Shown: piece by piece, positions 43,709 through 46,940 of the stretch | Position numbering within the stretch: position 1 is the first letter of the stretch | Layout: each line of letters opens with the position of its first letter | Notes under the pieces: generated by a model | Told to the model about the DNA's origin: nothing | The model's input: only the letters and a program-made list of their open reading frames with translations | Database searches by the model: none | Made by a program: the position numbers and the translations under genes | From: an uncultured Ruminococcus sp. | GTDB taxonomy: Bacteria > Bacillota > Clostridia > Oscillospirales > Acutalibacteraceae | Direction of reading: 5' to 3' | Assembly: GCA_902800065.1 (NCBI GenBank) | Contig: CADCDE010000002.1 | Coordinates: 107,043 to 171,042 of the forward strand | DNA length: 64,000 nt

Positions 43709-43740
43709 GAATCGGAATTATATATTTCGATTCTTTTTTT
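43709..43740 (+). terminator. Weak terminator after GNAT gene
   Basis: gaatcg / cgattc stem followed by a T7 run. Confidence 0.45.
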
Positions 43741-43754
43741 AAACTGTCAGTTTA

Positions 43755-43783
43755 TTGATGTGATTTGATAATAGGATTATAAT
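43755..43783 (+). promoter_or_regulatory. SigmaA-type promoter of the three-gene T4CP-like operon
   Basis: TTGATG, 17 nt spacer, TATAAT, followed by a GAGGGAGGG RBS before ATG 43812. Confidence 0.6.
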
Positions 43784-43811
43784 AGTATCATGATGAGGGA
43801 GGGAAATATAT

Positions 43812-44543
43812 ATGACGGAAAGAGAAAAGGAATTCCGACAGGCAGCAAGACAGGTCATTCTCATACTCGACAACTTTGAGGCTGACAAGGACAGAGTAGA
43901 CAAGGAAGTCATGGACATATTGAAGAAAAATATGGATATGTCACTCAAATGGACTTATAATAAAAACAAAAGTTTATCCGAACAGTCAGGGATATTATCT
44001 GCAACATACACTCTCCTTAACTTTTTGCTGAGACATTATATTTTTCCAAAAAGGGAGGGAGGAAACAAATTAGAAAGAGATAAACTTGAGAAATTGAAAG
44101 AAATGTTGGATCGCAGCGGAGACAACAAGACCAATGGGATAAAATTTCGTGGAAAAAAGAGAATATACGAAGATCTTTTGAATAAAGAAAATATGAACAG
44201 ATACAGTGAATATTATGAATATTCAGACAGAGACAGGCTGTATAAAAAGATATTTAAAAATACCGAAAGCGAGGAAGATAGTGACAGATATTTATTGATG
44301 CTGAAGCGTAGTAAGTACAAAAGAATGATAAGTGAAAATTCGGATGAGCAGGAGCTGTCCGGTGAATCTCAAGGATTTGAAGATAAATATGGCGGAATAG
44401 ACAAATATCATGAGCTGTTGGACAGAAGAAAATTTTATGAAGATATGATACAGATGCGTAAAAGATATGATGGCGGTGAGTCATTGGATTTTATGGAATG
44501 GCTCAGGGAAAAATACAGGGTTTTTTATGAGAAAGGAAAGTGA
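43812..44543 (+). CDS. Highly charged (K/E/R/D/Y-rich) hypothetical protein, operon gene A
   Basis: Strong RBS. 243 aa with no recognisable motif, no TM and no signal peptide. Confidence 0.6.
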   Translation: MTEREKEFRQAARQVILILDNFEADKDRVDKEVMDILKKNMDMSLKWTYNKNKSLSEQSGILSATYTLLNFLLRHYIFPKREGGNKLERDKLEKLKEMLDRSGDNKTNGIKFRGKKRIYEDLLNKENMNRYSEYYEYSDRDRLYKKIFKNTESEEDSDRYLLMLKRSKYKRMISENSDEQELSGESQGFEDKYGGIDKYHELLDRRKFYEDMIQMRKRYDGGESLDFMEWLREKYRVFYEKGK

Positions 44544-44549
44544 ACAGGT

Positions 44550-46022
44550 ATGATAAGACATTCAATGGAAGAAAACAGATTCGCAACAAGGGAAGAATTT
44601 TTACAGGGACTCCACAGGGAAAAAATGGGCGAGCTTACATCAATGTCAGGTGTACCGCTTTACAATCATAACGGTGAGGTATACACCGACACGACCGACA
44701 GCCATACTCTTATATTCGGAAATACGGGTACAAAGAAAACAAGAAATTTCTGCATACCGTCAGTCTATTCGATAGGTGCTTCAGGTGAATCAATGATAAT
44801 AACCGATCCGAAGGGCGAGATATACAAGAATACATCAGGATTTCTTGCCAATCAGGGTTATGATATACAGGTACTCAATTTCAGAGATACCGAGTACAGT
44901 ATACGCTGGAATCCGCTCGAGATACCATATAATTATTACAAAAACGGAGCAAAGGACAAAGCTATAGAAATGATAACCGACTTTGCAATACAGCTCAAGG
45001 CTCCCGTACACAGTGACAAGGATGTTTACTGGGAAAATCAGGCAGTAGATATGTTTGTCGGATTGGTGCTTATAGTATTTGAATGTGAGAAGGAGGCAAG
45101 CAAGGTCAATCTCAAGAGTGTACAGGGACTGAGAATGTATCTTGATGTCAGCGGAAAGGGCAGTGAGCAGGAGGTATTCTGGGATCTGTACAATACCTTC
45201 CCCGAAAACAGCGTTATCAGATACAAATTGGGAACTCTTTATTCACTCAGGAATACAGAGAAGACCTTCTCAAGCATAGTCAGTGTGTTTGACGGAATGA
45301 TGAGTATGTTCCTTTTCAATGACAGGATAATGTCGATGCTTTCTGCATCGGATATAGATATAAGAGAGCTTGGAGACAGAAAAACGGCATTCTATATTAT
45401 AATACCTGATGAGAAAACGACCTTCCATTTCCTTGTCAGCGTGTTCGTCAAGCAGTGCTATGAATGTCTGATAAGCAGTGCCCATAAGAATTCAAACGGA
45501 CAGATAAAGATAAGAATGAATTTTGTACTTGATGAATTCTCGAATTTCCCGAAAATATCAGATATGCCTGCAATGATATCGGCTGCAAGAAGCAGAAATA
45601 TCAGATTTATACTTATAGTACAGAGCAAACAGCAGCTTACATCAATGTACGGCGGAGATGCCGAGACCATCAAATCAAACTGCCGCAACTGGATATTCCT
45701 TGCCTGCAGGGAGATAGGACTCCTTGACGAGATATCAAGCCTTTGCGGCAGTGTCTATACAAGCGATAAGGGCGAGGTACCGCTCCTTAACATAACACAG
45801 CTTCAGAGCCTGAAAATAGGCTGGACAGATAGTCAGGCACTTATCCTCAGAACAGGTGTAAGACCTTACATAACAAATGTCAAGGATTTCTCCGTATATC
45901 CGCAGTCAGGATATCCATTTGTGAGATACAAAAAGAAGCCCATGAAGGATGTAGAGACCTTTTCTGCAGTAAAATATATGTATGACTTTGTTGATTCAAA
46001 GTTAAAGAAAGGCGGAAGATAA
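44550..46022 (+). CDS. Soluble VirD4/TraG/TraD-type coupling-protein-like ATPase, operon gene B
   Basis: Walker A LIFGNTGTKKTRN (44718-44741), ITDPKGEIY, Walker B-like FVLDEFSNF, and SAARSRNIRFILIVQSKQQL (TraG-D_C-like). No N-terminal TM. Confidence 0.8.
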   Translation: MIRHSMEENRFATREEFLQGLHREKMGELTSMSGVPLYNHNGEVYTDTTDSHTLIFGNTGTKKTRNFCIPSVYSIGASGESMIITDPKGEIYKNTSGFLANQGYDIQVLNFRDTEYSIRWNPLEIPYNYYKNGAKDKAIEMITDFAIQLKAPVHSDKDVYWENQAVDMFVGLVLIVFECEKEASKVNLKSVQGLRMYLDVSGKGSEQEVFWDLYNTFPENSVIRYKLGTLYSLRNTEKTFSSIVSVFDGMMSMFLFNDRIMSMLSASDIDIRELGDRKTAFYIIIPDEKTTFHFLVSVFVKQCYECLISSAHKNSNGQIKIRMNFVLDEFSNFPKISDMPAMISAARSRNIRFILIVQSKQQLTSMYGGDAETIKSNCRNWIFLACREIGLLDEISSLCGSVYTSDKGEVPLLNITQLQSLKIGWTDSQALILRTGVRPYITNVKDFSVYPQSGYPFVRYKKKPMKDVETFSAVKYMYDFVDSKLKKGGR

Positions 46023-46023
46023 A

Positions 46024-46890
46024 ATGTTTGAAGGCATATCAAAAGAGATGATGAAGGTATTTGAACACAGCCTTGACAGCAAGGCAATTTTGAATCTTTC
46101 ACCTGTATACCTGTTTTCACTTGACGGTGTCAGCGATGAGTATATAACCGAAAATCTCAAGGAACTCCTTATAGATTTTGAAAAAAAAGAGATTTTTTTG
46201 GCAAACAACGATGATATCATATATCTGAATCAGGAATATGGTACAGCAAGCTATGAGATAACAGAGAATCTCGGATTATCCGACGAGTGCGGAAAGTTCA
46301 AGAAAACGCTTGACCAGTGGCTGACCGAGATAAATCTGAAGTGTTATGTGTCACAGGGAATAGTTCTTATAAAAATAAATGAAACAGAAGGTATATCATC
46401 AAAGTCAGTATGGTGGAAAAGGCTGATTGCCAATATAAACCGTTTCAAAAAGGACTATCTGTTCATGATACAGACAGATACAGAGAACTTTGACAAGGTA
46501 TATGATTTTATCAATAGTGAGATATTTTGTCAGAAGCTGGTTATAGAGTCACCGAACAGCGAAAAATATTTTGATATTTTTATCCGTAATCTCGATAAAT
46601 ATAAACTGAGTCTCGACAGTCAGGGCAGAAAGAAGCTCAAGAAAATCATTCTTGCAAATATTGACAGTCTTGATACAAAGAGATTCATCAAATGGGAGCA
46701 GGAAATCATCTGGAAATATATGGTCAATTTCGATGGGGAATCAAAGAAAGAGGAATTCATGTGGTATGAAAGACAGAATACAGAGGAAAACGACGTATTA
46801 AGGACTGTTTTGCCATGTGAATATATAAATGATGACGGATTGAAAGAAACAACTTCATCTGGCAAAGAATTGACAAGATTAGGCTTCTGA
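46024..46890 (+). CDS. Hypothetical protein, possible degenerate SpoVK/CbbX-type AAA+ domain (P-loop lost), operon gene C
   Basis: ATG lies 1 nt after the gene B stop. The by-eye alignment to the SpoVK core places LFSLDGVSDEY at GNPGTGKT, GIVLIKINETEG at GGILFIDEAY, and YLFMIQTDTENFDKVYDFINSEIFCQKLVIESP at the sensor region. Confidence 0.5.
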   Translation: MFEGISKEMMKVFEHSLDSKAILNLSPVYLFSLDGVSDEYITENLKELLIDFEKKEIFLANNDDIIYLNQEYGTASYEITENLGLSDECGKFKKTLDQWLTEINLKCYVSQGIVLIKINETEGISSKSVWWKRLIANINRFKKDYLFMIQTDTENFDKVYDFINSEIFCQKLVIESPNSEKYFDIFIRNLDKYKLSLDSQGRKKLKKIILANIDSLDTKRFIKWEQEIIWKYMVNFDGESKKEEFMWYERQNTEENDVLRTVLPCEYINDDGLKETTSSGKELTRLGF

Positions 46891-46896
46891 CAAAAA

Positions 46897-46934
46897 ATAG
46901 GGCTTTCAGTTACAGCAGTGACTGAAAGTCCTAT
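46897..46934. terminator. Bidirectional terminator between operon gene C and convergent metF
   Basis: atagggctttcagt / actgaaagtcctat 14-bp stem (one G-U pair) flanked by an A6 run and a T-rich run. Confidence 0.8.
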
Positions 46935-46940
46935 TTGTAT

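Follow-up and report, generated by a model that had tools for sequence, protein, structure and literature searches.

Coupling proteins of the VirD4/TraG/TrwB type are regarded as the membrane gatekeepers of type IV secretion systems (T4SSs), and they read C-terminal signals of their substrates. In type VII secretion an AAA+ accessory protein, EccA, is paired with an FtsK-superfamily ATPase, EccC, and the HerA-based defense systems Sir2-HerA and DUF4297-HerA combine a hexameric ATPase of the FtsK-HerA superfamily with a partner protein; ClpX, ClpA, and ClpC dock onto ClpP by means of an [LIV]-G-[FL] tripeptide. On the linear plasmid pELF2, the VirD4-like ATPase TraD has no transmembrane domains and is essential for transfer; it is predicted to bind the neighboring TraC, which has a cryptic ATPase domain and is thought to tether it to the membrane (PMC13492992). 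Here we describe a three-gene operon (genes A, B, and C) in a 64,000-nucleotide (nt) stretch of DNA from an uncultured rumen Ruminococcus sp. (contig CADCDE010000002.1, positions 107,043 to 171,042), referred to below as the window, in which a soluble ATPase of the coupling-protein type, B, is encoded beside a smaller AAA+-like protein, C. We tentatively read this locus as a functional, acquired operon whose coupling-protein ATPase works without a T4SS, its role most likely being in accessory conflict or regulated proteolysis and not in conjugation.

The likeness to pELF2 TraD-TraC lies in a soluble VirD4/FtsK-type ATPase standing next to a partner with a degenerate or cryptic ATPase-like domain. 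The pELF2 partner, however, has two membrane helices and belongs to a plasmid transfer operon with a VirB6 analog, whereas hydropathy reveals no membrane segment in A, B, or C, a limited query set finds no VirB6-like open reading frame (ORF), the operon lies on a chromosome, and no plasmid homolog of C is found; the two are compared here by these features. The pairing of EccA with EccC is an analogy only, as no type VII secretion genes are present. The resemblance to the HerA systems may extend to an FtsK-HerA superfamily ATPase and a partner serving as an accessory module outside the ancestral role, a likeness at the superfamily level only, and the trio lacks a Sir2 or nuclease effector. The B-C pair appears to be undescribed: it is in none of the libraries searched (Pfam, NCBIfam, PADLOC 2.0, and PHROGs), and no description of it was found in the literature on orphan or soluble coupling proteins with AAA+, ClpP, CARF, or defense, in agreement with a preliminary description of this DNA that could name no system of this composition.

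Gene B and its clade of anchorless relatives

Gene B (positions 44550 to 46022, plus strand) codes for a 490-amino acid (aa) protein that passes the family thresholds for VirD4/TraG/TrwB proteins, as expected from its earlier assignment to the coupling-protein-type P-loop ATPases. The Pfam matches are T4SS-DNA_transf (PF02534; 4.4e-46), TraG-D_C (PF12696; 4.8e-22), and TrwB_AAD_bind (PF10412; 5.9e-15), and the NCBIfam match is to NF045973, the VirD4-like "CD1115" family of Firmicutes, at 273 bits (cutoff, 250). The nucleotide-binding, all-alpha, and TraG-D_C regions are the same as in VirD4, TraG, and TrwB, and TrwB is the sole solved structure that can be detected for B by sequence. B differs from these proteins in having no N-terminal transmembrane anchor, in carrying a Lys in its P-loop, in never being linked to a relaxase, VirB4, or VirB6, and in the constant presence of a C-like partner gene, a feature missing from true coupling proteins.

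The absence of an anchor is seen in the maximum 19-residue hydropathy, which is 1.36 for B and at most 1.7 for all C-paired relatives, versus 2.7 to 3.3 for T4SS-linked relatives. In an alignment of relatives at 41 to 69% identity, the Walker A region is a variant, G57-N-T-G-T-K-K-T-R65 (44718 to 44744, plus strand), with invariant positions G57, T59, G60, K62, K63, T64, and R65; the resulting pattern, G-x-T-G-x-K-K-T-R, has Lys at the canonical P-loop Gly position and so departs from the canonical G-x-x-G-x-G-K-[ST]. The Lys-Lys P-loop is present in 29 of 30 anchorless relatives, whereas the anchored relatives and the plasmid coupling protein have the canonical form; inheritance of the Lys-Lys pair from Firmicutes coupling proteins was considered and rejected, as the pair is specific to the anchorless clade. 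The Walker B motif, L327-D-E-F330 (45528 to 45539, plus strand), is invariant at all four residues, as are the motifs RSRN-x-R (residues 347 to 352) and VQS-x-x-QL (residues 357 to 363).

The B alignment, used to scan species-representative genomes, yielded more than 582 stretches encoding a B relative, 80 of which were retrieved, and the relatives fall into two classes. Class 1 comprises anchorless proteins of 490 to 780 aa (hydropathy, ≤1.7) from Clostridia of several families and from Izemoplasmatales, and class 2 comprises proteins of 700 to 960 aa from uncultured Bacilli, with a strongly hydrophobic N terminus (2.7 to 3.3), a canonical P-loop, and no C-like neighbor. VirB4-type ATPases adjoin 9 of 16 class 2 loci (95 neighbors annotated), and the neighbors also include SpoIID, CHAP, and M23 wall hydrolases, so these are real Gram-positive T4SS clusters. 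The same batch annotation gave no T4SS family among 140 neighbors of 25 class 1 loci; none of these relatives is located within a T4SS or integrative conjugative element. The closest named plasmid relative of B (31% identity, 648 aa, anchored) is situated between a MobP3 relaxase and genes for TrbL, PrgI, VirB4-like, and NlpC/P60 proteins.

A C-like gene abuts the class 1 B gene in 27 of 27 loci examined, metagenome-assembly loci included. The B and C genes often overlap or lie 1 to 20 nt apart; genes of the close C subfamily are either downstream or upstream of B, and those of the distant C subfamily are always upstream. Given the contrast between the two classes in anchor, P-loop, and C neighbor, the clade of B is marked by three common changes: anchor loss, replacement of Gly by Lys in the P-loop, and an obligatory C partner. 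The clade delimits a compact core of two genes.

Two side observations concern the relatives of B. Two Clostridia metagenome-assembled genomes (MAGs) have an ORF of about 285 aa on either side of B. The upstream ORF is C-like; its downstream counterpart (family F21; L018:11447-12304 and L025:11450-12310, with retrieved loci denoted by L numbers) has no detectable similarity to C or to any Pfam or PHROG family and may be a further diverged partner. Several contigs with Firmicutes-type coupling proteins are labeled as Bacteroides or Muribaculaceae MAGs (L016, L023, L031, L039, L040, and others) and are probably misbinned or horizontally transferred elements.

Partner proteins C and A

Gene C (46024 to 46890, plus strand) codes for a 288-aa protein without a match in Pfam, NCBIfam, PADLOC, or PDB sequences, and an exhaustive profile search of 1.84 billion representatives gave only 36 clusters of relatives, all of about 265 to 290 aa. 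A match to Crass_capsid (E value, 0.007; below cutoff) was treated as chance. The AlphaFold model from a 30-sequence alignment (predicted local distance difference test score [pLDDT], 85; predicted template modeling score, 0.77) has a predicted alpha-beta-alpha base and helical lid, as in the AAA+ fold, and Foldseek relates it to RFC small subunits, CbbX, PCH-2, Vps4, and spastin (probability, 1.0; E value, ~1e-5) at modest TM-scores of 0.37 to 0.46. The model superposes on RFC subunits and CbbX, and a C-like domain forms the N terminus of multi-AAA proteins of the CbbX/SpoVK/EccA type; C differs from all of these in being a single domain with a conserved tail and in lacking the catalytic motifs. 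Neither Walker A, Walker B, nor the arginine finger is conserved in the alignment of the C family, and no conserved Gly-Lys or acidic pair follows strands 1 and 3, whereas P27 and W230 are invariant and Y29, L30, W99, G287, and F288 are nearly so. Model, Foldseek matches, and alignment together bear out the view of C as a AAA+ shell with a destroyed P-loop, and C is predicted to be a noncatalytic partner of B.

C ends in the tripeptide L-G-F (46879 to 46887, plus strand), a putative docking motif that closes a flexible tail modeled at low confidence (pLDDT below 50 at residues 277 to 284). The motif, [ILV]-G-[FL], is the feature of C that persists best: both C subfamilies retain it, in most cases with basic residues before it, and it also occurs at the C terminus of a C-like-AAA fusion (...KIGF) and, as I-G-L, in the C-like protein of L010, a locus with ClpP in its operon. 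Conservation of the tail, taken with the use of such tripeptides by Clp ATPases and the reading of C-terminal signals by coupling proteins, suggests that the tail could dock onto either ClpP or B.

Gene A (43812 to 44543, plus strand; 243 aa) codes for a protein described beforehand as very charged and without a recognizable motif, and this holds: 42% of its residues are charged, 17 are Tyr, and it belongs to no recognizable family in Pfam, NCBIfam, PADLOC, or PHROGs. A match to phrog_10491 (E value, 0.032) was treated as chance because other A-family and A-like proteins fail to reproduce it. In the alignment the N-domain (approximately residues 1 to 100) and a C-terminal motif, GGESLDFMEWLREKY-x-VF, are conserved, and the charged middle varies; relatives form only 11 clusters among 5.8 billion proteins. 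The structure is predicted to be all-helical, with the AlphaFold model at low confidence (pLDDT, 47). An ORF family (F3) adjoining B-C in three further genomes (L004, L087, and L089) aligns with the N-domain of A (95 columns; hhalign probability, 77%; E value, 2e-5), and the order of the A-like, B, and C genes is permuted between genomes. Co-occurrence beyond this genome, on which the preliminary description had made its case depend, is therefore found for all three genes, with B-C in every class 1 locus examined. A is probably a rapidly evolving helical third subunit and the variable part of the system, with the B-C pair as its conserved core.

Acquisition, gene neighborhoods, and possible roles

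Comparison of the window species with its sister species shows strong constraint on the operon. The ratio of nonsynonymous to synonymous substitution rates (dN/dS) is 0.046 for B (92% aa identity), 0.073 for C (83%), and 0.25 for A (57%), and the flanking housekeeping genes span 0.045 to 0.22 (78 to 98% identity). Seven of the eight places shown with an identical GNAT gene carry the trio, followed by metF where the contig extends, and the eighth ends just after GNAT; the sister species has the trio at the same left junction with different downstream genes. All 48 loci from more distant relatives in which lepB-rbgA-rnhB-yraN is retained (RnhB, 61 to 76% identical; at least 4.5 kb of downstream sequence) lack A, B, and C. 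The low dN/dS, fixation in the species, and absence from the 48 loci show that the trio is functional, not a remnant, and that it was acquired in this lineage and does not belong to the conserved block. The GNAT acetyltransferase gene (window:43279-43701) is also absent from the same 48 loci and could have been gained together with the trio or at the same variable site; between it and A stand a possible terminator and a promoter.

The genomic position of B-C differs in nearly every genome, and about 10 of 27 loci have protein-handling or conflict-type neighbors. Genes for ClpP paralogs with intact catalytic motifs start 1 to 13 nt past, or overlap, the stop codon of an anchorless ATPase gene in four loci (L010, L014, L071, and L004), although in L004 the ClpP gene adjoins a second VirD4-like paralog and not the B of the B-C pair. 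HSP70-like genes are present in L005 and L042, and multi-AAA proteins of the SpoVK/CbbX/EccA type, with a C-like N terminus, PF00004, and AAA_lid_6, adjoin B in L017 and L042. Further neighbors are a FtsH-like protein (AAA_2, AAA, and M41), tandem YbjN-like genes, and Sel1 or tetratricopeptide repeat proteins. CARF-PD-(D/E)xK nucleases are encoded in three loci, one of them overlapping B by 4 nt; RyR domains are fused or adjacent to B; and DO-GTPase/GAP1 systems, NADAR, ADP-ribosylglycohydrolase, and RNA ligase plus kinase are found near some B-C loci. GTPase-HSP70 conflict systems have been described, with no mention of a VirD4-like partner (PMC7159879). The neighbors in other genomes point to an accessory protein-handling or conflict module, and the earlier suggestion of an anti-phage or anti-plasmid function draws support from these neighborhoods and from nothing beyond them.

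Some of these loci have features of their own. The 418-aa anchorless VirD4-like gene of L004 (L004:3218-5062) has a canonical P-loop, GSSGCGKT, with the ClpP paralog 12 nt after it; the pair lies 5 kb upstream of B-C on one Lachnospiraceae MAG contig, along with genes for ADP-ribosylglycohydrolase, nucleotidyltransferase, and HD_4 proteins, and VirD4-like plus ClpP may constitute a separate module. L010 (3652-12733) has a packed operon of C-like, B-like, ClpP, Xre-type helix-turn-helix (96 aa), CARF-PD-(D/E)xK nuclease, two YbjN-like, and 1,140-aa AAA_2-AAA-Peptidase_M41 genes and is the richest version of the system. In L005 (813-4402 and 13683-17624) and L087 (1-5300), B-C stands beside GTPase/HSP70 "DO-GTPase" and GAP1-type conflict systems and beside genes for surface proteins in which a NADase_transloc domain is joined to PASTA or SLH; both NADase_transloc and Sel1 proteins turn up again in independent loci.

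In the tentatively favored interpretation, B, like its relatives, would form a ring, here in the cytoplasm, and would use nucleotide binding or hydrolysis while engaging a macromolecular substrate via its all-alpha domain. C would act as a noncatalytic adaptor whose tail docks onto either B or an effector, for instance ClpP, and A would supply specificity or regulation. The module would hand a target to the effector, which elsewhere may be the same-operon ClpP, CARF-PD-(D/E)xK nuclease, or SpoVK/FtsH-type AAA+ protein and in this genome would have to be a host enzyme; the outcome would be accessory conflict (anti-mobile-element or anti-phage) or regulated proteolysis. A more specific version, which we consider unlikely and offer as speculation, has B-C as a new ClpP-activating machine: a ring of the RecA/FtsK fold would replace the AAA+ unfoldase, the C tails would dock onto ClpP, the substrate-recognition domain of the coupling protein would be reused to capture invader proteins (relaxase-DNA complexes or phage proteins) for destruction, and A would be a rapidly evolving specificity factor. 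The coupling-protein clade would in either form show an ATPase family reused for a cytoplasmic task, together with a partner that has no Pfam family. If true, this would amount to a new route to ClpP-dependent proteolysis or to a new defense module recognizing the same signals as conjugative systems, and either outcome would be relevant to research on secretion, proteolysis, and bacterial immunity.

Several observations weigh against a conflict or proteolysis role of this kind. About 17 of the 27 loci, the window included, are in plain housekeeping surroundings; no recognizable effector, nuclease, or toxin domain is present in A, B, or C, and no conflict gene is nearby in the window. In PADLOC-DB 2.0 there is no match for A or C, and B matches only mad8, weakly (1e-6). 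The ClpP link rests on four loci and a three-residue motif, which ClpX and ClpA, and Clp ATPases generally, display in a surface loop of their active AAA+ ring; here it belongs to the C-terminal tail of an AAA+-like protein that is inactive, and the active ATPase, B, has a RecA/FtsK-type fold instead, and no ClpP gene stands beside the operon in the window. The Lys for Gly in the P-loop might impair hydrolysis, in which case B may be a switch and not a motor. The strong sigma-A-type promoter, species fixation, and constraint like that on housekeeping genes would fit a physiological role just as well. Two candidate identities with known defense systems were set aside. The MADS protein mad8 was kept for B as a superfamily-level similarity only, the match being weak and the preprint having no description of mad8 domains, and the Menshen system is unrelated because its ATPase is of the ABC type.

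That physiological role, in which B-C, with or without A, forms a cytoplasmic machine, either a specialized device that cooperates with housekeeping ClpP in proteostasis or regulated proteolysis or a motor that handles DNA during chromosome processing or development, we judge possible if somewhat unlikely. Purifying selection as strong as on the neighboring housekeeping genes speaks for it, as do fixation of the trio in the species and its presence at the same place in the sister species, the sigma-A-like promoter, the many loci with ordinary metabolic or housekeeping neighbors, and the chaperone or protease character of the recurrent partners (ClpP, HSP70, SpoVK/FtsH-like AAA+, and YbjN-like). 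Such a role, on the other hand, fits poorly with absence from 48 relative loci that have the same housekeeping block, with very small and patchy families whose position differs in nearly every genome, with the fast evolution of A, and with the CARF nucleases and GTPase conflict systems of some loci. Its sporulation variant, put forward in the preliminary description, gains no support: one relative is 6 kb from spoIIAA-spoIIAB-sigF, with no pattern, and the occurrence of the B-C pair in MAGs of Izemoplasmatales, which we take to be nonsporulating, argues against it.

Origins and functions tied to mobile elements have less in their favor. A minimal, unorthodox DNA transfer apparatus modeled on pELF2 TraD-TraC or Streptomyces TraB has a precedent in the anchorless VirD4/FtsK-type ATPase that is essential for transfer (PMC13492992), and B retains the all-alpha domain and TraG-D_C region with which coupling proteins recognize substrates. 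It is nonetheless improbable, because no component is membrane bound and there is no plasmid link: A, B, and C have no membrane segment, neither the window nor the surroundings of the relatives contain a VirB4 or VirB6 analog, relaxase, or origin-like repeat, and among 72,556 plasmids C has no match and the best match of B is 31% identical. The operon is also a fixed part of the chromosome and is accompanied by neither an integrase gene nor flanking repeats. The preliminary description had seen no transfer, integrase, or repeat features and had concluded that the locus is not conjugative, and the scans agree: no ORF of the window resembles a relaxase, VirB4, VirB6/TrbL, or tyrosine recombinase (within a limited query set from a real conjugation cluster), no tRNA gene is present in the 64 kb, only short chance repeats surround the unit, and base composition has no break between operon and flanks. 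Decay of an integrated conjugative element or plasmid transfer region is suggested by the otherwise conjugative nature of the B family, whose NCBIfam name is conjugal transfer protein and whose plasmid relatives are in transfer clusters. We nevertheless give this origin very little credence, since decay is excluded by the dN/dS of B and C; all three ORFs are intact, no other transfer gene or compositional anomaly accompanies them, and the anchor loss, P-loop change, and C partner are common to a clade spanning several Clostridia families.

Equally little speaks for a phage-borne module, whether prophage cargo or an anti-defense gene set, although two relatives do lie in same-strand arrays with NADAR, ADP-ribosylglycohydrolase, RNA ligase plus kinase, and nucleotidyltransferase genes that resemble phage counter-defense cargo. 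None of the 35 IMG/VR contigs with a B-like gene has a C-like gene, and the best of these B-like proteins are 36% identical and membrane anchored. In 50,697 phage records of INPHARED, B matches are at most 31% identical among the 25 listed and every match is below 60%; the relatives of B in the two collections are all distant and membrane anchored, and neither collection gave a C-like gene. PHROG matches are insignificant or not reproducible, and no phage structural genes were seen in any locus. A phage origin is thus, on the evidence of these collections, highly improbable, and the accessory conflict or regulated-proteolysis role keeps its tentative place as our preferred account of the operon.

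Boundaries and flanks of the operon

The three intact ORFs are all on the plus strand and are separated by 6 nt (A-B) and 1 nt (B-C), and the ORF coordinates coincide with the arrangement reported initially. A sigma-70-type promoter-like site, TTGATG-17-TATAAT (43755 to 43783, plus strand), agrees with the consensus at 10 of 12 positions, and a ribosome-binding site read from the sequence, GAGGGAGGG (43795 to 43803, plus strand), is located 8 nt 5' of the gene A ATG. The promoter claimed for the operon is thus present as a site, but its function is plausible and not proven, since comparable matches abound in this AT-rich region (24 against an expected 15.6). Upstream of it, a possible intrinsic terminator of the rplS-to-GNAT unit (43709 to 43740, plus strand) was read from the sequence as GAATCG, a 13-nt loop, CGATTC, and seven T residues; the evidence is weak, and the hairpin scanner did not report it because its loop is longer than 8 nt. 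At the other end, the terminator expected to close the unit corresponds to a terminator-like hairpin with a 19-bp stem (46895 to 46936, assigned to neither strand) that is common to C and the convergent metF.

The flanks, annotated with Pfam labels on a same-species contig, accord with the housekeeping context noted previously: upstream are homoserine dehydrogenase, aspartokinase, rplS, lepB, rbgA, rnhB, yraN, and GNAT genes, and downstream are metF and a MacB/FtsX-type permease gene. The two FtsX halves of the permease (window:48272-51736, minus strand; 1,154 aa) are separated by a very long K/E/Q/N-rich coiled-coil insertion. The interval from rplS to lepB contains a single ORF without an assigned function in the window and in most contigs of the species (window:40178-40729; 160 aa in L090), and in L091 (2303-3472) and the sister species (L002, 3503-4672) a 200-aa ORF and an extra signal-peptidase paralog are found there; this difference is a small indel polymorphism within the otherwise "conserved" block.

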